This document shows positions 258 through 46,899 of a stretch of DNA of 64,000 bases, one piece after another. The notes beneath the pieces are model-generated. The model saw only the letters and a list, made by a program, of their open reading frames with translations, was not told the DNA's origin and did not search any database. The stretch lies in assembly GCF_003334785.1 (NCBI RefSeq), contig NZ_QOWV01000004.1; one strand, given 5' to 3'. Position numbers and translations under genes: made by a program. Positions within the stretch are counted from its first letter, which is position 1, and every line of letters starts with the position of its first letter. The stretch comes from Escherichia coli. Its GTDB lineage: Bacteria; Pseudomonadota; Gammaproteobacteria; Enterobacterales; Enterobacteriaceae.

Positions 258-440
258 AATCAACCTGTTCCTTGCGGAGTTGCCGCGTACCAATGCTTCA
301 ACCAATAAAGCGGGAGTTTTTAATCTTTCCCACTGAAGCGGGTGTGAATACTAACCAAAGCGAATGACCTTCGCAAGGGCAATTTTATCGCATTGTATCA
401 ACTGCGGAAAAAAACAGCAAAACCGATGTGTTCGCTGAGA

Positions 441-466
441 AAAAAGGCGACAATCGCCGCCTTTTT
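441..466 (-). terminator. Intrinsic terminator downstream of glmM
   Basis: GC hairpin (GGCG..CGCC) with flanking A/T runs immediately after the glmM stop at 485. Confidence 0.55.
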
Positions 467-484
467 AGCCAGTTATCTAACGCT

Positions 485-1822
485 TTAAACGGCTTTTACT
501 GCATCGGCGATGCGGTGTGCAAATTCAGTCACCTGCGCTTCGTCTTCGCCTTCCACCATCACGCGAATTAACGGTTCGGTGCCGGATTTACGCAGCAACA
601 CGCGTCCACGGTTGCCCAGCGCAGCTTCAACCTCTGCGGTCACGGCTTTAACTGACTCATGCTCAAGTGGATCGCCGCTACCTGCGGTGTAACGTACGTT
701 AACCAGAATCTGCGGGAACATTTTCATGCCGCTGCAAAGGTCGTGCAGGCTCATATGGTTACGTGCCATCGCCGCCAGCACCTGCAAGCCAGCAACGATG
801 CCGTCACCGGTAGTAGTTTTATCCAGCAGGATCACATGACCGGAATTCTCTGCACCGATACGCCAGCCTTTCTCCTGCATTTTTTCCAGTACGTAGCGGT
901 CACCCACTTTCGCGCGCGCAAATGGAATTCCTAACTGTTTCAGCGCCAGTTCAAGCCCCATGTTGCTCATCAATGTACCCACAGCGCCACCACGCAGCTG
1001 GCCCTGACGAAGACCTTCACGCGCGATGATATACATGATCTGATCGCCATCGACTTTATTGCCTTCATGGTCAACCATAATCACGCGATCGCCATCGCCG
1101 TCGAAGGCAATACCGAGATCCGCTTTTTCAGCCAGCACACGAGCCTGGAGCGCGCGAACGTCGGTAGCCCCCACTTCGGCATTGATGTTTACACCGTTTG
1201 GCTCACAACCGATAGCGATAACGTTCGCCCCCAGTTCGCGCAGCACGTTCGGCGCGATGTGATAAGTCGCACCGTTTGCACAATCCACCACAATCTTCAG
1301 TTCACTGAGGCTAAGTTCGTTCGGGAACGTGGCTTTGCAAAACTCGATATAGCGACCCGCGGCATCAACGATACGGCTGGCTTTACCCAGTTCTGCCGAA
1401 TCAACGCAGCTGATCTCCTTTTCCATTTCCGCTTCGATGGCCTCTTCTACCGCATCCGGCAGTTTGGTGCCGTCGATAGAGAAGAATTTAATGCCATTAT
1501 CGTAGAACGGGTTATGCGATGCAGATATCACAATTCCGGCCTCTGCGCGGAAGGTACGCGTCAGATAAGCCACGGCCGGTGTTGGCATCGGGCCAGTGAA
1601 GAGTGCGGAAAGGCCCGCTGCCGCCAGACCCGCTTCCAGTGCTGACTCCAGCATATAGCCAGAAATACGCGTGTCTTTACCAATAATAATCTTACGGGAG
1701 CCGTGGCGCGCCAGCACTTTACCCGCGGCCCAACCCAGCTTAAGCACAAAATCAGGTGTGATCGGCGCATCCCCTACACGACCACGAATCCCATCGGTAC
1801 CGAAATATTTACGATTACTCAT
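485..1822 (-). CDS. glmM: Phosphoglucosamine mutase
   Basis: 445 aa; [14 protein letters not shown]... and SASHNP phosphoserine loop. Confidence 0.97.
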
Positions 1823-38368: not shown

Positions 38369-38381
38369 GCGAGGTAACAAT

Positions 38382-38409
38382 GAATTCGCCAGACTGTGTC
38401 TGGCGAATC
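38382..38409. repeat. Palindromic unit (GAATTCGCCAGAC-TGT-GTCTGGCGAATC), 13 nt after the gltD stop
   Basis: 12-13 bp perfect inverted arms with 3-nt centre; same family as the units in and after yhcG. Confidence 0.8.
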
Positions 38410-40558: not shown

Positions 40559-42940
40559 ATGTTAAAAAAAACGTTACTGGCCTACACCATTGGTTTTGCC
40601 TTTTCTCCCCCAGCCAATGCAGATGGTATAGAGATTGCCGCTGTTGATTTTGATCGGGAAACATTAAAATCACTAGGTGTAGATCCTAATATATCGCATT
40701 ATTTTTCCCGTTCAGCCCGTTTTTTGCCAGGTGAATATTCACTGATAGTATCAGTAAATGGCGAAAAAAAAGGCAACATTGCTACGCGCTTTGATGAAAA
40801 TGGCGACATTTGTCTTGATCAGGCATTTCTGCAACAAGCCGGTTTAAAAATTCCTTCTGAAGAAAAAAATGGCTGTTACGACTATATATTGTCCTACCCG
40901 GGTACCACAATCACACCATTACCTAACCAGGAAGCGTTAGATATTATCGTTTCACCACAGGCGATCATTCCCATAGGGTTGGATCTCACAAACGCAGCAA
41001 CTGGTGGAACAGCTGCGCTGCTAAACTACTCTCTGATGAGCAGCCGTGCAGAATTTTCTAATGGGAGTTCGGACTACTCCCAGGCTGCACTTGAAGGCGG
41101 GATTAATATTAATGACTGGATGTTACGCAGCCATCAGTTCCTTACACAAACAAATGGCACATTCAGTAACCAGAACTCGTCAACCTACCTTCAACGTACC
41201 TTTACAGATCTTAAAACACTCATGCGAGCAGGTGAAGTTAACCTCAATAATAGCGTGTTGGAAGGAGCCAGTATTTACGGTATCGAAATCGCACCGGACA
41301 ACGCATTGCAAACCAGCGGCAATGGTGTGCAAGTTACTGGTATAGCCAACACCTCTCAGGCTCGTGTCGAGATTCGTCAACAAGGAGTTTTAATTCATTC
41401 CATTCTGGTTCCTGCGGGCGCATTCACTATCCCTGATGTACCTGTTCGCAATGGTAATAGTGATCTTAATGTCACCGTTGTCGAAACAGACGGTAGTTCG
41501 CACAACTATATTGTTCCCTCCACCCTGTTTAATCAGCATGTAGAAAGCTTCCAGGGTTATCGCTTCGCGATAGGGCGGGTAGACGATGACTATGACGAAT
41601 CACCTTGGGTAATTAGTGCATCGAGCGGATGGAATCTGACACGCTGGAGTGCAATGAACGGCGGCGTTATCGTAGCAGAAAATTATCAGGCGGCATCAAT
41701 CCGGTCGAGTCTGGTTCCCCTGCCCGATTTAACAGTGAGCAGCCAAATTAGTACATCGCAGGATACGAAAGACTCACTGCAAGGACAGAAATATCGTCTT
41801 GACGCGAACTACAATCTCCCATTTTCACTTGGGCTAACAACCAGCCTCACTCGATCTGATCGCCATTATCGCGAACTGTCTGAAGCGATTGATGATGATT
41901 ATACCGATCCGACTAAAAGCACTTATGCGCTTGGTTTAAACTGGTCTAACTCCATTCTGGGTGGTTTCAACATCAGTGGCTATAAAACATATAGTTACGA
42001 CGGTGACAATGACTCAAGCAACCTTAATATTAACTGGAACAAAGCGTTCAAACACGCCACGGTTTCCGTCAACTGGCAGCATCAACTTAGTGCTTCAGAA
42101 AATAATGAAGACGATGGTGATCTGTTCTACGTCAACATCAGTATTCCATTTGGCAGATCAAACACCGCCACACTGTATACTCGCCATGACGATCATAAAA
42201 CCCACTATGGTACTGGTGTCATGGGAGTCGTCTCAGATGAGATGTCCTACTATGTGAATGCTGAACGAGATCACGACGAACGTGAAACGAGCTTGAACGG
42301 CAGTATCAGTTCCAATCTCCATTACACCCAAGTCAGCCTTGCCGCAGGAGCAAGCGGCAGTGATAGCCGTACTTACAACGGTACGATGTCAGGTGGTATT
42401 GCCGTACATGATCAGGGAGTGACCTTTTCACCGTGGACTATCAATGACACTTTCGCCATCGCAAAAATGGATAACAATATTGCAGGTGTCAGAATTACAT
42501 CTCAGGCAGGCCCAGTATGGACAGATTTTCGGGGTAATGCCGTCATTCCATCAATCCAGCCGTGGCGAACATCAGGAGTTGAGATCGATACCGCCAGCTT
42601 GCCAAAAAATGTCGATATCGGTAACGGCACAAAAATGATCAAACAAGGCCGTGGTGCAGTAGGGAAAGTCGGATTCAGTGCGATAACACAACGCCGTGCA
42701 TTACTCAATATCACACTTTCCGACGGCAAAAAACTGCCCAGAGGCGTTGCGATTGAAGATAGTGAAGGCAACTATCTGACAACATCAGTGGATGACGGTG
42801 TTGTATTCCTCAATAACATCAAACCGGACATGGTGCTAGATATAAAAGATGAGCAGCAATCATGCCGTATTCACCTTACATTCCCAGAAGATGCACCAAA
42901 AGATGTGTTCTATGAGACAGCAACAGGAGAGTGCCAATGA
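40559..42940 (+). CDS. yhcD: Fimbrial outer membrane usher
   Basis: 793 aa from ATG (MLKKTLLAYTIGFAFSPPANA...); C-terminal Cys pair. Confidence 0.9.
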   Translation: MLKKTLLAYTIGFAFSPPANADGIEIAAVDFDRETLKSLGVDPNISHYFSRSARFLPGEYSLIVSVNGEKKGNIATRFDENGDICLDQAFLQQAGLKIPSEEKNGCYDYILSYPGTTITPLPNQEALDIIVSPQAIIPIGLDLTNAATGGTAALLNYSLMSSRAEFSNGSSDYSQAALEGGININDWMLRSHQFLTQTNGTFSNQNSSTYLQRTFTDLKTLMRAGEVNLNNSVLEGASIYGIEIAPDNALQTSGNGVQVTGIANTSQARVEIRQQGVLIHSILVPAGAFTIPDVPVRNGNSDLNVTVVETDGSSHNYIVPSTLFNQHVESFQGYRFAIGRVDDDYDESPWVISASSGWNLTRWSAMNGGVIVAENYQAASIRSSLVPLPDLTVSSQISTSQDTKDSLQGQKYRLDANYNLPFSLGLTTSLTRSDRHYRELSEAIDDDYTDPTKSTYALGLNWSNSILGGFNISGYKTYSYDGDNDSSNLNINWNKAFKHATVSVNWQHQLSASENNEDDGDLFYVNISIPFGRSNTATLYTRHDDHKTHYGTGVMGVVSDEMSYYVNAERDHDERETSLNGSISSNLHYTQVSLAAGASGSDSRTYNGTMSGGIAVHDQGVTFSPWTINDTFAIAKMDNNIAGVRITSQAGPVWTDFRGNAVIPSIQPWRTSGVEIDTASLPKNVDIGNGTKMIKQGRGAVGKVGFSAITQRRALLNITLSDGKKLPRGVAIEDSEGNYLTTSVDDGVVFLNNIKPDMVLDIKDEQQSCRIHLTFPEDAPKDVFYETATGECQ

Positions 42941-43482
42941 AACGGATAATAACAGGATGCCTGCTGCTGAACTTCGCCATGGCCGCTCAGGCAGAGTGTA
43001 ATATCTCCAGTAGCATACAAAATATCGACTATGGCAAACGAAGTGCTGCCATGCGCCAAGTTGACCGGGGTAAAACAACACAATTAGCAGACAGAACAAT
43101 CACGCTGGTAATGCAATGCGATCAGGACGCTCATATTCGTGTTCAGTTGAATACCGCTAATATTTCCAACAACGGATTTGGATTTGGCCCGAATGGTTCA
43201 TTAAATCTGATCGCCAGCGATGCATTTTCAGGTAGTAACAATCTCGACCTGGCGTTAGCCAGTGGCAAAAATGACAATCCGGGCAGCACAGGAACAGCAT
43301 CAATTAGTACTTCCCCCAATAATTGGCTGGTGTTTATGCAAAATGGTCAAGAAGTGGTAATTGATAGCGGTAAAAGCGTTAGCCTCACACTGACAATGGC
43401 TCCAGCTTTTAAGGATGAAGGGGAACTAACCGACATGACAGATATTACAGGCAATCTGACGGTCCTGGTGGAGGCAAAATGA
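42937..43482 (+). CDS. yhcE: Putative fimbrial subunit YhcE (DUF1120-like), apparently intact
   Basis: 181 aa from ATG overlapping the yhcD stop (ATGA); signal peptide MKRIITGCLLLNFAMAAQA; no insertion sequence in or near the ORF. Confidence 0.8.
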   Translation: MKRIITGCLLLNFAMAAQAECNISSSIQNIDYGKRSAAMRQVDRGKTTQLADRTITLVMQCDQDAHIRVQLNTANISNNGFGFGPNGSLNLIASDAFSGSNNLDLALASGKNDNPGSTGTASISTSPNNWLVFMQNGQEVVIDSGKSVSLTLTMAPAFKDEGELTDMTDITGNLTVLVEAK

Positions 43483-44195
43483 ACAATGTAAAATTACTGA
43501 TTGCCGGAAGTGCCTTTTTTGCCATGTCAGCGCAAGCCGCTGATAGAGTATCAATTGACGTTAAGGTGACTCTGGAAGCTGCAGCTTGTACTCCAATACT
43601 AAGCAACGGCGGAGTTGTTAACTTCGGTAGTCATTCAGTCAATAGACTTTCAACGCAGCACTACACACAGATTGGAACACGTAATATTAATATGACTATA
43701 ACTTGCGAATCCGCTACCGGCATTGCGATTACCGCTCGTGATACACGAATGGATAGTATGACCACCGGAAAAGATAGTGGGGGTCAGAGTGGTGTAAAAT
43801 ATACCTTAAATGGCGGAGGTTATATTAGCCAGACAACGCGCTTATTCGGCTTAGGGAAAACAAAAGATAATAAAAATATCGGTAGTTATGCCGTGTTAAT
43901 TGATAGCAACAACATTAGTGCCAGCAATGGTAGCCAGACGTTAGCTGTATCAATAGCAGGTGCAGATGCCGTCATAACAGGGCAAAAAAGAGCATGGCAA
44001 ACGCTCACCGCTTATCCGCTTGCAGTCGATCAAAGCTATTATTACACCTTTGTAAAACCAGGTGAAACAACCCCAACTCCTGTAACGAACGCCATTATAC
44101 CGCTTCAGGTGAGCGCATCTATCGCGAATGATTTAGGCGGTTCAGAAAAAATCGAACTTGATGGGAAAGCTGTGATAAGCGTAGTCTACTTGTGA
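43479..44195 (+). CDS. yhcF: Putative fimbrial subunit YhcF (DUF1120 family)
   Basis: 238 aa; signal peptide MNNVKLLIAGSAFFAMSAQA; C-terminal ...ELDGKAVISVVYL paralogous to gltF. Confidence 0.85.
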   Translation: MNNVKLLIAGSAFFAMSAQAADRVSIDVKVTLEAAACTPILSNGGVVNFGSHSVNRLSTQHYTQIGTRNINMTITCESATGIAITARDTRMDSMTTGKDSGGQSGVKYTLNGGGYISQTTRLFGLGKTKDNKNIGSYAVLIDSNNISASNGSQTLAVSIAGADAVITGQKRAWQTLTAYPLAVDQSYYYTFVKPGETTPTPVTNAIIPLQVSASIANDLGGSEKIELDGKAVISVVYL

Positions 44196-44379
44196 TAACA
44201 ATGCCGGACAGGAGTACTATCAGGCATTCGTTTTATACGATCGGTTAATGTTTCAGGAAAGCTCTTCGCATATCTTGGGGAAAGTAAATGTAATACGCTG
44301 TTCTTAATTGTTCAGTGCTCACCCCCCAGAGTATAGCTCATTCCATTATTCAACTTAGCTCCATATAAAGGGACAGATA

Positions 44380-45507
44380 ATGGAATCGCTCTCAGAAGGA
44401 ACCACAGCAGGCTACCAGCAAATCCACGACGGTATTATTCATCTGGTCGATAGCGCCCGGACGGAAACGGTACGTAGCGTTAACGCGTTAATGACCGCGA
44501 CGTACCAGGAAATTGGCCGACGAATTGTCGAATTTGAACAAGGTGGCGAGGCCAGGGCTGCGTATGGTGCGCAGCTAATCAAGCGACTATCAAAGGATTT
44601 ATGTCTAAGGTATAAGCGTGGGTTCTCTGCAAAAAACTTACGCCAAATGAGGCTTTTTTACCTCTTTTTTCAACATGTTGAAATTCGCCAGACAATGTCT
44701 GGCGAATTAACACCATTGGGAATTCCGCAGACACCGTCTGCAGAATTCCCATCGGCAAAGATTTGGCAGACGCTGTCTGCCAAATCTTTCCCCTTGCCCA
44801 GGTCCACCTACGTCCGTTTACTTTCCGTTAAAAACGCTGACGCCCGCAGCTTTTATGAAAAAGAGACGCTCCGCTGTGGCTGGTCTGTTCGCCAGCTAGA
44901 GCGGCAAATTGCGACCCAGTTTTATGAGCGGACACTACTGTCACATGACAAATCAGCCATGCTGCAACAACACGCTCCTGCCGAGACGCATATTCTTCCG
45001 CAACAGGCGATACGCGATCCCTTTGTGCTCGAATTTCTGGAATTGAAAGATGAATATTCAGAATCCGATTTTGAGGAGGCGCTGATCAACCACCTGATGG
45101 ATTTCATGCTGGAACTTGGGGATGATTTTGCCTTTGTTGGTCGGCAGCGAAGGTTACGCATTGATGACAACTGGTTTCGTGTCGATCTGCTGTTTTTCCA
45201 CCGCCGTTTACGCTGCCTGCTAATCGTCGATCTAAAAGTGGGCAAATTCAGCTATAGCGATGCCGGACAGATGAATATGTATCTCAACTACGCCAAAGAG
45301 CACTGGACGCTACCGGATGAAAATCCGCCCATCGGTCTGGTTCTCTGTGCAGAGAAAGGAGCCGGAGAAGCGCATTATGCTCTGGCAGGTTTGCCTAACA
45401 CCGTTCTGGCAAGCGAATATAAGATGCAACTACCTGATGAGAAACGACTCGCAGATGAACTCGTTCGAACACAGGCGGTGCTAGAGGAAGGCTATAGACG
45501 CCGTTAA
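44380..45507 (+). CDS. yhcG: YhcG, DUF1016-family protein with PD-(D/E)xK nuclease-like C-terminal region
   Basis: 375 aa; MESLSEGTTAGYQQIHDGIIHLVDSARTE...; C-terminal ...RVDLLFFHRRLRCLLIVDLKVGKF... resembles a D...(D/E)xK core; contains three in-frame palindromic repeat units. Confidence 0.85.
   Translation: MESLSEGTTAGYQQIHDGIIHLVDSARTETVRSVNALMTATYQEIGRRIVEFEQGGEARAAYGAQLIKRLSKDLCLRYKRGFSAKNLRQMRLFYLFFQHVEIRQTMSGELTPLGIPQTPSAEFPSAKIWQTLSAKSFPLPRSTYVRLLSVKNADARSFYEKETLRCGWSVRQLERQIATQFYERTLLSHDKSAMLQQHAPAETHILPQQAIRDPFVLEFLELKDEYSESDFEEALINHLMDFMLELGDDFAFVGRQRRLRIDDNWFRVDLLFFHRRLRCLLIVDLKVGKFSYSDAGQMNMYLNYAKEHWTLPDENPPIGLVLCAEKGAGEAHYALAGLPNTVLASEYKMQLPDEKRLADELVRTQAVLEEGYRRR
44682..44787. 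repeat. Three tandem 27-29 bp palindromic units (CAGAC-N3-GTCTG core) inside the yhcG coding sequence
   Basis: Units at 44682-44708, 44720-44748 and 44759-44787 with 38-39 bp periodicity; 12-13 bp inverted arms, two perfect and one with a single mismatch. Confidence 0.8.
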
Positions 45508-45520
45508 TTTCAGCGGTTTC

Positions 45521-45548
45521 GAATTCTGCAGACAGTGTCTGCAGAATC
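45521..45548. repeat. Palindromic unit (GAATTCTGCAGAC-AGT-GTCTGCAGAATC), 13 nt after the yhcG stop
   Basis: Perfect inverted arms; same family as 38382-38409 and the intragenic yhcG units; lies between convergent yhcG and yhcH. Confidence 0.8.
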
Positions 45549-45566
45549 TTTAAAACGAACTAAGTT

Positions 45567-46899
<1,333 letters not shown>

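Follow-up and report, generated by a model that had tools for sequence, protein, structure and literature searches.

A gene-linked DNA palindrome of fixed build at one site in nuclease genes of the DUF1016/YhcG family

The nuclease genes of the DUF1016/YhcG family very probably carry, at one site, a gene-linked DNA palindrome of fixed build (we put the probability of this reading at about 0.9). Two mirrored arms of ~12 bp enclose a 3-nt centre of the form R-N-Y, and AATT usually stands at either end. The element lies ~300 nt into the gene, where the encoded loop separates the conserved 'FYLxYP' and 'LSWSHY' motifs. The symmetry of the DNA is the conserved feature, whereas the encoded peptide is a passenger that changes with the DNA. 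Our searches of the literature on yhcG, DUF1016 and PDC-S02 turned up no account of the element, apart from the use of yhcG length in O157 typing. We analysed a 64-kb stretch of Escherichia coli DNA (the window), in which yhcG holds three in-frame 27-nt palindromes (12+3+12) spaced 39 and 39 nt from start to start, equal to 13 codons, and in which further copies lie between genes:

38383 to 38408, no strand assigned: intergenic copy P_L, AATTCGCCAGAC-TGT-GTCTGGCGAAT, 14 nt past the gltD stop
44380 to 45507, plus strand: yhcG open reading frame, 375 aa, with DUF1016_N, a predicted disordered linker encoded by the palindromes, and the YhcG_C PD-(D/E)XK nuclease domain
44682 to 44708, no strand assigned: in-gene unit 1, AATTCGCCAGAC-AAT-GTCTGGCGAATT, perfect, inverted repeat 13/13, encodes (E)IRQTMSGEL
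44721 to 44747, no strand assigned: in-gene unit 2, AATTCCGCAGAC-ACC-GTCTGCAGAATT, one C-A mismatch, encodes (G)IPQTPSAEF
44754 to 44792 (core 44760 to 44786), no strand assigned: in-gene unit 3, GATTTGGCAGAC-GCT-GTCTGCCAAATC, encodes KIWQTLSAKSF
45522 to 45547, no strand assigned: post-stop copy P_R, AATTCTGCAGAC-AGT-GTCTGCAGAAT, intergenic, 14 nt past the yhcG stop

A preliminary description of this DNA had recognized the three in-gene units within an intact yhcG reading frame, and both the sequence and a repeat finder agree with it, giving arms of 12–13 nt; the linker peptides that it read from the units (EIRQTMSGEL, GIPQTPSAEF and KIWQTLSAKSF) stand as given, but its list of copies overlooked the two intergenic ones, P_L and P_R. 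All five copies fall within the gltD-nanQ interval, with P_R located between the convergent genes yhcG and nanQ (yhcH), and the arms of P_L are identical to those of unit 1. The window contains the core CAGAC-N3-GTCTG 5 times against 0.05 expected, a count reached by none of 100 shuffles, and the longer pattern ATT-N3-CAGAC-N3-GTCTG-N3-AAT, with 3 mismatches allowed, returns the identical 5 sites (0.24 expected). Folded as single-stranded DNA, the copies reach −10 to −14 kcal/mol each, with z from −5 to −9.7 (unit 1, −13.1; unit 2, −10.1; unit 3, −14.1; P_R, −10.8 kcal/mol as DNA hairpins), and the pairing of unit 3 extends to 18-nt arms that are 94% complementary according to the repeat finder. 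Of note, the arms of unit 2 are similar to those of P_R. An intrinsic (Rho-independent) terminator was considered and rejected: a terminator scan of positions 44100–45700 reported none of the palindromes, and the stems continue into AATT and mixed sequence. MG1655 and strain H1 have no repeat or other annotated feature at the palindrome sites.

The yhcG gene of the window belongs to the DUF1016/YhcG family of PD-(D/E)XK nucleases, as both Pfam domains are present, DUF1016_N (PF17761) at residues 19–184 (E = 1.3e-36) and YhcG_C (PF06250) at residues 208–360 (E = 1.6e-56). The family is large, comprising 21,241 cluster representatives at E <= 1e-3 (clusters at 50% identity). YhcG also matches the PADLOC profile PDLC04807 (E = 2.8e-131) and is by this profile HMM a member of PDC-S02, a candidate label for phage defence. 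The one PDC-S02 gene assayed, a representative of the group, did not protect against T4, T5 or T7. Comparing the N-terminal DUF1016 domain with known folds gave no DNA-binding fold or informative match, and a search for a solved structure of this domain found none. In the structural model of YhcG, residues 101–130, the stretch encoded by the palindromes, are the sole internal segment of low confidence (pLDDT 42–56). As modelled, this stretch is a disordered loop, in line with the initial view that it is tolerated as a linker.

To place the element in the family, we rely on samples drawn with and without the palindrome. A scan of one genome per species with the pattern ATT-N3-CAGAC-N3-GTCTG-N3-AAT gave at least 120 matches. 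Among the matches listed, hosts range from Proteobacteria to Woesearchaeota, a YhcG-like gene of 28–66% amino acid identity lies at or near the palindrome in 87 of 120 loci, and the palindrome is in frame at the identical protein position in 90 of 99 oriented matches. The palindrome-independent sample consisted of 60 loci on viral contigs, retrieved by patterns in the C-terminal peptide. The CAGAC type was present in 33 of these 60 loci, as compared to ~0.2 expected from shuffles, and many of the remaining loci had another perfect palindrome at the matching site and in the matching frame, such as AATTGCGAACGC-GCT-GCGTTCGCAATT. Further perfect palindromes of alternative sequence at the family site are CAATTTGCTACAC-ACT-GTGTAGCAAATTG and AATTGGTCAACA-AGC-TGTTGACCAATT, and the inner sequence varies between subfamilies. 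Phage-genome records numbered 16 and were mostly fragments. For 48 distinct genes chosen without reference to the palindrome, the family site held the best palindrome of the gene in 43, and in 19 the palindrome was stronger than in 100 out of 100 synonymous-codon shuffles. When all strong palindromes in 97 full genes were mapped, 85 of 92 fell within +270..+390 nt, against a background of 0.068 per kb. Judged by these comparisons, one unit at the fixed site is a family-wide feature, in bacteria and archaea alike, and is probably ancestral. Unit 1 is the counterpart of this single ancestral unit, and the sole unit of O157 yhcG occupies the unit 1 position.

Within the element, it is the pairing rather than the peptide that is conserved. 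Double compensatory changes were seen in 12 of 12 arm pairs; 89.8% of cells were paired, compared to 62% after shuffling and 22–40% when the partner column was slid, and the covariation score was 0.66 vs 0.17. Tandem units within one gene have differing arms, each of which is self-complementary. In the commonest type of encoded peptide, I-x-Q-T-x-S-x-x, the two residues following Ser vary together with residue x in the way expected of reverse-complement codons. A mere coincidence of a protein motif was rejected, since synonymous shuffles lose the palindrome, subfamilies differ in peptide yet remain symmetric, and copies exist in non-coding DNA. With homologues keeping the inverted repeat while the peptide changes, and with copies outside genes, the units are a feature of the nucleic acid, as had been suspected at the outset.

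Copies outside the gene body recur at two positions. Extra copies with matching arms lie 30–35 nt 5' of the start codon, beside the ribosome-binding site, at four loci (L003, L039, L106 and L155 in our numbering), and copies in the 5' UTR lie 4–10 nt before the ribosome-binding site at L003, L039, L043, L058 and L106; the distance from upstream to in-gene copy is 324–347 bp, and helical phasing of these pairs, too few of which are independent, was not taken as evidence. In distant homologues, 3' copies are found after the stop (L182) or at the extreme 3' end of the open reading frame (L043), comparable to P_R. Moreover, arrays of diversified units are present in non-coding DNA of several phyla, some of them without a nearby DUF1016 gene, and solo copies as well as arrays occur in either orientation and in contexts that do not look transcribed. 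At L041, L131 and L111 the solo copies are remnants of decayed DUF1016 genes; at the other solo copies, and at P_L and P_R, no DUF1016 remnant was detectable. The neighbours of solo copies include tyrosine recombinases or transposases (L081, L083 and L099), a relaxase (L118) and type I restriction-modification (R-M) genes (L095, L080 and L013). There is no tRNA near the solo copies, and we rejected an island boundary at a tRNA.

The preliminary description had offered two interpretations, a miniature element expanding within the gene or an RNA or DNA structure with its own function. The latter proved the better half, and the evidence favours DNA over RNA. An mRNA hairpin could be a stability or processing element, or a site through which a protein, possibly YhcG, controls translation of a toxic nuclease or of genes further down type I R-M operons. 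Consistent with this, the folding check suggested earlier gave very strong RNA structure for the 131-nt three-unit region on both strands (z = −11.4 on the plus and −10.7 on the minus strand), every arm pair covaries, the extra copies in the 5' UTR and just past the stop occupy classic positions of RNA control, and inside polycistronic R-M operons an RNA element is more readily envisaged than an operator. However, G·U pairs are no better tolerated than other mismatches: the tally of sense-strand mismatches comprised 9 G·U, 14 A·C and 15 transversions, revealing no wobble bias, and in interior cells G·U accounted for ~1.6% vs ~10% for other mismatches. In addition, the symmetry runs through the 'loop' to one central base, the first and third centre bases being complementary in 55 of 88 units (62%), a property irrelevant to RNA. 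The solo copies and arrays, found in either orientation and in seemingly non-transcribed DNA, also speak against an mRNA hairpin, as does Rfam 15, which has no matching family and returned only chance-level mir-266 matches (23.6 bits vs a gathering score of 80). Because G·U is not favoured and the symmetry extends to the centre, the constraint looks to be at the level of DNA rather than RNA, and we consider the mRNA hairpin unlikely.

Strict symmetry of the DNA could also be the product of a mutational process instead of selection. The quasi-palindrome would then be functionless and self-maintaining, with intrastrand template switching copying arm onto arm, and slippage giving rise to tandems and deletions. 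In E. coli, quasi-palindromes are corrected by template switching, an established mutational mechanism known from the work of Ripley and the Lovett laboratory. The Ripley model, for which hot spots in E. coli thyA are an example, accounts for arms that evolve in concert, with Watson-Crick pairing and no strand bias. This agrees with the strict, DNA-type pairing of the yhcG element, which lacks strand bias and is symmetric to the centre, with the differing but self-complementary arms of tandem units, with the disordered, unconstrained nature of the peptide, and with the finding that copies outlive gene decay (L041, L131 and L111) and persist in genomes devoid of yhcG. Template switching is a mechanism, however, and not an element. 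Such a drive alone leaves unexplained why position, arm length and frame are fixed across >21,000 clusters and why extra copies recur at two extragenic positions; furthermore, deletion normally removes palindromes, and an asymmetric hybrid copy in E. albertii, described below, was left uncorrected. We thus regard a functionless origin as rather improbable.

In E. coli, copy number and locus structure change at the palindromes. The O157:H7 yhcG gene, with its single unit, falls 78 nt short of the three-unit allele of the window, bearing out the expectation that linker length varies by whole units; in the window, in-frame amplification has produced three tandem palindromes at a period of 39 nt. 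The 7.1-kb gltF-yhcADEF-yhcG segment is bracketed by P_L and P_R and is missing from ~1,000 E. coli genomes. A perfect solo copy is retained in ~1,000 E. coli genomes without yhcG, and the empty site of AR_0086 consists of a single perfect palindrome having the left flank of P_L and the right flank of P_R. In many E. coli strains, homology to the window stops exactly at the 3' edge of unit 3, with other DNA beyond, and alleles of the Ec-U10/ATCC 8739 type diverge after ...GCCAAAT, those of the Ec-U10 type being truncated pseudogenes. E. albertii lost the nuclease segment when an in-gene unit recombined with the post-stop copy P_R, and the hybrid left behind is asymmetric and remains uncorrected. 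Being short direct and inverted repeats, the palindromes are hot spots of slippage and deletion, which yields whole-unit copy changes and rearrangements ending at palindromes. In LSPA-6 typing, one yhcG allele is said to be 78 nt larger, which is not borne out by the texts of the typing papers. LSPA-6 shares the yhcG stretch with our palindrome analysis and is purely a typing locus: O157:H7 lineages are typed with yhcG length as a marker, using amplicons of 394 and 392 nt, and the palindrome is not mentioned (PMC3514354, PMC8733641).

The same rearrangements might be taken as signs of a recombination or mobility site, an att- or attC-like junction for insertion, excision or exchange, either by a recombinase or after cleavage. 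The 7.1-kb segment with two bracketing copies and an empty site with one, the loss of the nuclease segment in E. albertii, the foreign 3' parts beginning exactly at the edge of unit 3, and the recombinases, transposases, relaxase and type I R-M loci adjoining solo copies would all fit such a site. Integron attC sites resemble the yhcG element in being diverse but self-complementary, in their placement after a stop, in forming arrays, and in leaving one copy at an empty site. Unlike attC sites, which span 57–141 nt and have R and L boxes, extrahelical bases and IntI, the yhcG element has none of these features and usually lies mid-gene rather than at a cassette end. We rejected an attC identity, since the element is 27 nt long, does not fit the boxes RYYYAAC … GTTRRRY (compared by eye) and has no IntI consistently nearby; indeed, no recombinase of any kind is consistently associated. 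Of 4,439 E. coli genomes carrying the locus, 0 contain the inverted junction between unit 3 and the post-stop copy, as constructed in silico, which gives no support to an invertible DNA switch (inverton). As for module shuffling at the palindrome, there is one clear mosaic (L089/L109/L033); its breakpoint lies within a conserved block, 60–100 nt downstream of the units, as ordinary homologous recombination would produce. Identities of N- and C-terminal segments are not bimodal, and the deletions fit RecA-independent slippage between repeats of 13–17 nt. Taken together, a dedicated recombination site appears quite improbable.

The other half of the initial interpretation, in which a miniature palindromic element of the REP, MITE or Rickettsia type invaded yhcG and expanded there, is largely refuted and very improbable. 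Rickettsia palindromic elements (RPEs) are 100–150 nt long, are confined to a single genus, occur in many unrelated genes and RNAs and are viewed as selfish mobile DNA (Ogata et al. 2000, 2002, cited in PMC4316617). They share with the yhcG element the in-frame position of palindromic DNA in coding genes, the translation into a tolerated surface or loop peptide and the recurrence of the nucleic-acid feature rather than the peptide. Besides this in-frame tolerance, the copies outside the gene in the window and the diversified arrays in non-coding DNA of several phyla would be compatible with invasion. In contrast to RPEs, however, the yhcG element measures 27 nt, is confined largely to a single codon position of a single gene family, extends over many phyla plus archaea and is usually single-copy per replicon. 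A single unit is found at the fixed codon position family-wide, even in archaeal members and those of 30% identity, and the inner sequence differs from member to member; we regard the unit as probably ancestral and not as an insertion into yhcG. A Rickettsia-type element or MITE was thus rejected, given a site at one codon position of one family and solo copies that are few and in part gene remnants. The preliminary notion of a dispersed repeat fared no better: in five complete plasmids from five phyla the element is present solely at the DUF1016 gene, one copy per replicon, and these plasmids contain no dispersed cognate targets.

The REP/BIME sequences of enterobacteria with their RAYT proteins deserve separate mention. 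Both they and the yhcG element are short imperfect palindromes that lie past stops between convergent genes, form clusters and flank a gene of nuclease type. The associated proteins differ, RAYT being an HUH Y1 transposase and the yhcG-associated protein a PD-(D/E)XK nuclease. By sequence, AATTCGCCAGAC-N3-GTCTGGCGAATT is unlike the ~35-nt REP consensus …GCCGGATGCGGCG…CTTATCCGGCCTAC quoted in PMC7967276. By copy number, 5 copies in the 64-kb window at one locus (gltD-nanQ only), the main copy inside a gene, and the gene-only distribution in the five plasmids do not match REP/BIME either; no transposition is evident, and MG1655 has no repeat annotation there.

Palindromic cis sites within coding sequence are well known from parS in parB/spo0J and from auxiliary operators such as lacO2 and galOI. 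Each is linked to the gene for the protein acting on it, and parS is conserved across phyla. A sequence-specific dimer recognizes such sites in duplex form, and positions that are not contacted drift independently. In the yhcG element, by contrast, the inner 8 bp of each arm vary by subfamily and by tandem unit while being strictly complementary throughout. The fact that the inner arms vary and nonetheless stay complementary argues that pairing or symmetry itself matters. We tentatively propose that the encoded, putatively resolvase-like nuclease uses the palindrome as a cis site that forms a hairpin or cruciform. The palindrome would act as DNA, folding into a hairpin or an extruded cruciform, and would not be read as sequence by a conventional dimeric repressor. 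The encoded nuclease may bind the cis-linked palindrome and perhaps cut it, and binding would link how much of this potentially toxic nuclease is present, or how active it is, to its own locus. A cruciform suggests itself as the nuclease site because, as a four-way junction, it would suit a resolvase-like domain. It is conceivable, if doubtful, that YhcG nucleases, whose genes are often embedded in type I R-M operons, carry their own substrate in their coding sequence, a cruciform or hairpin recognized by shape rather than sequence. DNA conformation would then gate the enzyme, with supercoiling, replication or single-stranded entry as possible inputs, and the peptide would be a by-product of a DNA signal that bacteria and archaea have both conserved.

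Several observations count against this proposed cis site, among them that the N-terminal domain resembles no known DNA-binding fold and that the PDC-S02 representative gave no phage protection. At 27 bp, the palindrome is short for spontaneous cruciform extrusion. Cleavage within its own gene would damage the cell, a point that counts against a nuclease site. In type I R-M operons, the DUF1016 gene has no promoter of its own, and the gene on the Serratia plasmid overlaps both neighbours by 4 nt; self-repression at a promoter can therefore not be the general role. The solo copy in yhcG-less genomes and the arrays with no DUF1016 gene nearby imply that the element does not need the protein in cis in order to persist.

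For E. coli, these data mean that the O157:H7 typing polymorphism in yhcG length reflects gain or loss of whole units, and that the palindrome in the gltD-nanQ spacer is the boundary of a 7-kb presence/absence region. Should the element be non-functional, it would be a striking case of a self-perpetuating palindrome. If it is functional, it would give experiments a first point of entry to a very large family (>21,000 clusters at 50% identity, in many phyla plus archaea) and a defined 27-bp candidate ligand for proteins encoded by plasmids and type I R-M loci, and it would represent an unusually clear DNA structural signal that dictates protein sequence over very long evolutionary time, with consequences for how 'conserved peptide motifs' and constraint at synonymous sites are interpreted.

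The preliminary description, made from the sequence alone, had reported three palindromic units in frame within yhcG, and both the window sequence and a repeat finder bear this out, with the units spaced by exactly 39 nt (13 codons). Within the 64-kb window, the core CAGAC-N3-GTCTG occurs five times compared to 0.05 expected, and a search for ATT-N3-CAGAC-N3-GTCTG-N3-AAT with up to 3 mismatches returned the identical five sites. The two further copies, which had been overlooked, are both intergenic. The features concerned are:

44380..45507 (+), yhcG ORF, 375 aa, with DUF1016_N (residues 19-184) and the YhcG_C PD-(D/E)XK nuclease domain (208-360) according to Pfam
44682-44708, unit 1, perfect 13+1+13 palindrome
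44721-44747, unit 2, palindrome with one C-A mismatch
44760-44786, unit 3, pairing over 18 nt per arm
38383-38408, gltD copy, beginning 14 nt past the gltD stop, with the arms of unit 1
45522-45547, post-stop copy, beginning 14 nt past the yhcG stop, with the arms of unit 2

The spacers between stop and palindrome (38369-38382 and 45508-45521) are unrelated in sequence, and their identical 14-nt length could reflect coincidence or a positional constraint. RNA folding of the unit region yielded z-scores of -11.4 and -10.7 for the two strands, well outside chance, and DNA folding gave -10 to -14 kcal/mol for each window copy. In the window yhcG, the element has undergone tandem amplification in frame.

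Among 5,426 complete E. coli genomes, 1,029 carry the K-12-like arrangement of the window, most others retain yhcG and lack gltF-yhcF, and about 1,000 have no yhcG. Strain H1-type genomes match the window at 100%; yhcE is intact in the window (42931-43482), whereas it is interrupted by IS5 in MG1655 (L185:6186-7930). The linker changes length in whole units: YhcG of O157:H7 and O111 has 349 aa and a single unit, ATTCGCCAGACAGTGTCTGGCGAAT, with the 'LPWSTY' motif intact. All three units persist in Ec-U10, ATCC 8739 and many other strains, but homology stops exactly at the end of unit 3; in place of the nuclease domain and the post-stop copy, these strains have about 470 nt of foreign DNA. This foreign DNA (L123:3033-3500 in Ec-U10) contains a 101-aa ORF labeled 'transposase' (WP_000639208.1), for which NCBIfam returned no match, and ends in a hairpin with a 10-bp stem, GGCACAGAGC…GCTCTGTGCC. 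In AR_0086, which lacks yhcG, the 67-nt gltD-nanQ spacer harbors one perfect palindrome, flanked on the left as the gltD copy is and on the right as the post-stop copy is, and identical to the O157 in-gene unit at 27/27 positions. In E. albertii yhcG, unit 1 is followed by a hybrid palindrome bearing the right arm and flank of the post-stop copy, indicating that recombination between two copies removed the nuclease segment; the hybrid itself is asymmetric, with weak folding (-5.2 kcal/mol). The palindrome copies are rearrangement hot spots, with rearrangements ending at the copies. Such endpoints would suit a recombination or mobility site; on the other side, no inverted allele was found among 4,439 E. 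coli genomes, in the single clear mosaic gene the break lies 60-100 nt downstream of the units rather than at them, and the identities of N- and C-segments showed no bimodality. We regard a dedicated site of this kind as improbable. Of note, yhcG length is one of six LSPA-6 markers for O157 lineage typing, and two papers on this typing contain no description of palindromes in the gene (PMC3514354, PMC8733641).

The palindrome belongs to the gene family rather than to E. coli: it is gene-linked and of DNA type, deeply conserved, and occupies one site in DUF1016/YhcG genes. A scan with 16 specified bases across 100,044 species, each represented by one genome, gave at least 120 matches, compared to an estimated chance expectation of about 70 for the whole collection. 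The matches listed span Proteobacteria, Firmicutes, Bacteroidota, Acidobacteriota, Verrucomicrobiota, Cyanobacteria, Myxococcota, Elusimicrobia and Archaea, and 87 of the 120 loci listed have a YhcG-like gene (28-66% amino-acid identity) at the match or adjoining it. Among these, 90 of 99 gene-oriented matches encode an in-frame I-x-Q-T-x-S between the 'Y-x-x-YP' and 'LSWSH' motifs. Watson-Crick complementarity holds for the three pattern-free bases of each arm in 80-93% of units. This sample was selected on the palindrome pattern itself; a pattern-independent one comprised 60 viral-contig loci retrieved via C-terminal peptide patterns downstream of the palindrome site. Here, 33 of 60 loci carry a CAGAC-type unit at the same position, compared to about 0.2 expected, some with compensatory changes in the core (GAGAC…GTCTC, CACAC…GTGTG). 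Many loci lacking the CAGAC type have another perfect palindrome with site and frame unchanged, such as AATTGCGAACGC-GCT-GCGTTCGCAATT, which encodes PIANALRSQF, CAATTGCGTCCGC-AGT-GCGGACGCAATTG, CAATTTGCTACAC-ACT-GTGTAGCAAATTG or AATTGGTCAACA-AGC-TGTTGACCAATT. Of 48 distinct genes, 43 have their strongest palindrome at the site, 33 reach at least 10 of 11 pairs, and 19 beat all 100 synonymous-codon shuffles, in which the protein sequence was kept. Among 92 strong palindromes in 97 full-length genes and their flanks, 85 fall at +270 to +390 nt, compared to a background of 0.068 per kb elsewhere in these loci. A protein-level coincidence as the origin of the palindrome is excluded.

About half of 150 diverse homologues have one to three occurrences of Q-T-x-S at the site, and residue x tracks the two residues after the serine exactly in the way expected from reverse-complement codons (W…AK, G…DQ, Q…VE, F…GK, V…AQ). 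The protein alignment identifies the site as a hypervariable spot of 0 to about 100 residues, and in an AlphaFold2 model with a mean pLDDT of 82 the unit-encoded residues 101-130 form the only low-confidence internal segment (pLDDT 42-56). The inner 8 bp per arm are unconstrained except for symmetry. A conserved Ile and a [K/Q/E]-[L/F] pair fall on the AATT ends, to whose conservation protein constraint may contribute. The encoded peptide is a passenger.

In the unbiased site alignment, all 12 arm pairs show changes on both sides, and 89.8% of cells are paired, a percentage biased upward by taking the best palindrome centre in a 150-nt site window, compared to 62% after shuffling and 22-40% when the partner was displaced by 1-3 columns; covariation scored 0.66 versus 0.17. 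The agreement in position and the synonymous shuffles are the tests free of such circularity. An mRNA hairpin, for which the RNA folding scores would speak, should tolerate G·U pairs, but mismatched free positions comprised 9 sense-strand G·U, 14 A·C (G·U on the antisense strand) and 15 transversions, giving no G·U excess, and interior cells contained about 1.6% G·U and about 10% other mismatches. Moreover, the centre of the units reads R-N-Y with bases 1 and 3 complementary in 55 of 88, so that symmetry mostly extends down to a single central base, which is meaningless for an RNA hairpin. Arms also differ among tandem units of one gene, each being self-complementary (CGC/GCG, CCG/CAG and TGG/CCA in the window), and therefore one sequence-specific dimer cannot read those bases. 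Together, these features argue against both mRNA structure, which we consider unlikely, and a conventional operator. As judged from sequence, they point to self-complementarity at the DNA level, in the form of a hairpin or cruciform, or of concerted arm evolution. The latter would be compatible with a self-maintaining quasi-palindrome devoid of function; given the fixed site of the palindrome across the family, we deem this somewhat less likely still than an mRNA structure.

Linkage to the gene is also evident in five complete plasmids from five phyla, where a palindrome of this build occurs solely at the DUF1016 gene: in four at +277 to +306, with inner sequences that differ from plasmid to plasmid, and in a Rickettsiales plasmid as a shorter palindrome at +310, with a second one 27 nt past the stop. 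Three of these plasmids have the gene within a type I R-M operon, flanked by hsdM and hsdR (L187:8406-16049; L188:23669-29851; L189:29522-37012), and in the Serratia plasmid it overlaps both neighbours by 4 nt. The anticodon nuclease gene prrC takes this slot in the EcoprrI locus, an analogy hinting that the R-M complex guards the DUF1016 protein, which would be a latent effector. PADLOC labels YhcG as defence candidate PDC-S02, of which one assayed representative gave no protection against T4, T5 or T7, and for its N-terminal domain an informative structural match was not found. A stationary-phase antisense/divergent RNA, G0-10703, is reported to overlap the yhcG 5' region by 128 nt (PMC7967276); its position corresponds to about 44196-44380 of the window, upstream of the palindromes.

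Extra same-arm copies lie 30-35 nt upstream of the start codon, beside the ribosome-binding site, in four comparison loci (L003, L039, L106, L155), with similar copies in L043, L048 and L058. Others are found at the stop or 11-17 nt past it (L043, L182 and the window); in distant homologues the distance is 11-27 nt (L182, Rickettsiales plasmid), and in L043 the copy sits at the ORF's extreme 3' end. About 14-20 of the 120 matches listed are truly free-standing, including copies in type I R-M loci (L095, L080, L013), adjoining tyrosine recombinases or transposases (L081, L083, L099), a relaxase (L118) or a phosphorothioate-dependent restriction enzyme (L047). Three are detectable DUF1016 gene remnants (L041, L131, L111); no remnant was seen at the others, including both E. 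coli intergenic copies. Arrays of 2-5 diversified units without a detectable DUF1016 gene nearby occur in L014, L016, L081, L013, L065 and L001, three of them with the same build and differing inner sequences:

L014:4305-4632, array in a Myxococcales MAG
L016:12385-12511, array in an Elusimicrobia MAG
L065:177-258, array in a Methanoregula MAG

In L081:1-620, a tyrosine-recombinase ORF (351..1808, minus strand) runs in frame through the units (…ISQTVSAES…IGQTVSGQS…), at least four of which, with differing cores, lie at about 257, 306, 437 and 514, adjoining a divergent HTH gene and operator-like direct repeats, GTTACTnCCnTAAGGGAGTAAT, at 150-215. Solitary copies and arrays would fit an invading dispersed element; considering the exclusive placement at the DUF1016 gene in the plasmids, we give this explanation very little credence. 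A second, unrelated palindrome family (about AACTnnnAAG-N5-CTTnnnAGTT) lies near DUF1016 genes and type I R-M loci of Bacteroidales and Clostridia type (L076:3139 and 3173; L055:142; L095:2514; L028, 10 nt past the DUF1016 stop; L158, 52 nt before the start) and may represent an hsdS-shufflon inverted repeat or a terminator. The related viral contigs L136-L142 carry a perfect hairpin, CAAAAGGCCACC-CAT-GGTGGCCTTTTG, 88-115 nt upstream of the DUF1016 start, which looks like the upstream gene's terminator, unrelated to the yhcG-type element.

Our tentative reading, to which we assign a probability of roughly 35-40%, is that the palindrome forms a hairpin or cruciform whose partner would be the encoded, putatively resolvase-like nuclease, serving either in self-control or as its preferred substrate. 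Such a partnership would explain why gene and site co-occur so strictly, why shape and not sequence is conserved, why the pairing is of DNA type and why extra copies are flexible in position; it fits poorly with solo copies in genomes without yhcG. No description of the element turned up in full-text searches, Rfam has no entry for it, and MG1655 carries no annotation at the window-type sites. The nearest known kinds are the protein-coding palindromes of Rickettsia, REP/RAYT, parS within parB, and attC, whose respective defining features the element does not share. We rate it as a translated palindromic DNA element, yet one that is family- and site-specific and present in bacteria and archaea; if the nuclease indeed acts on its own gene's palindrome, it could be more than that.
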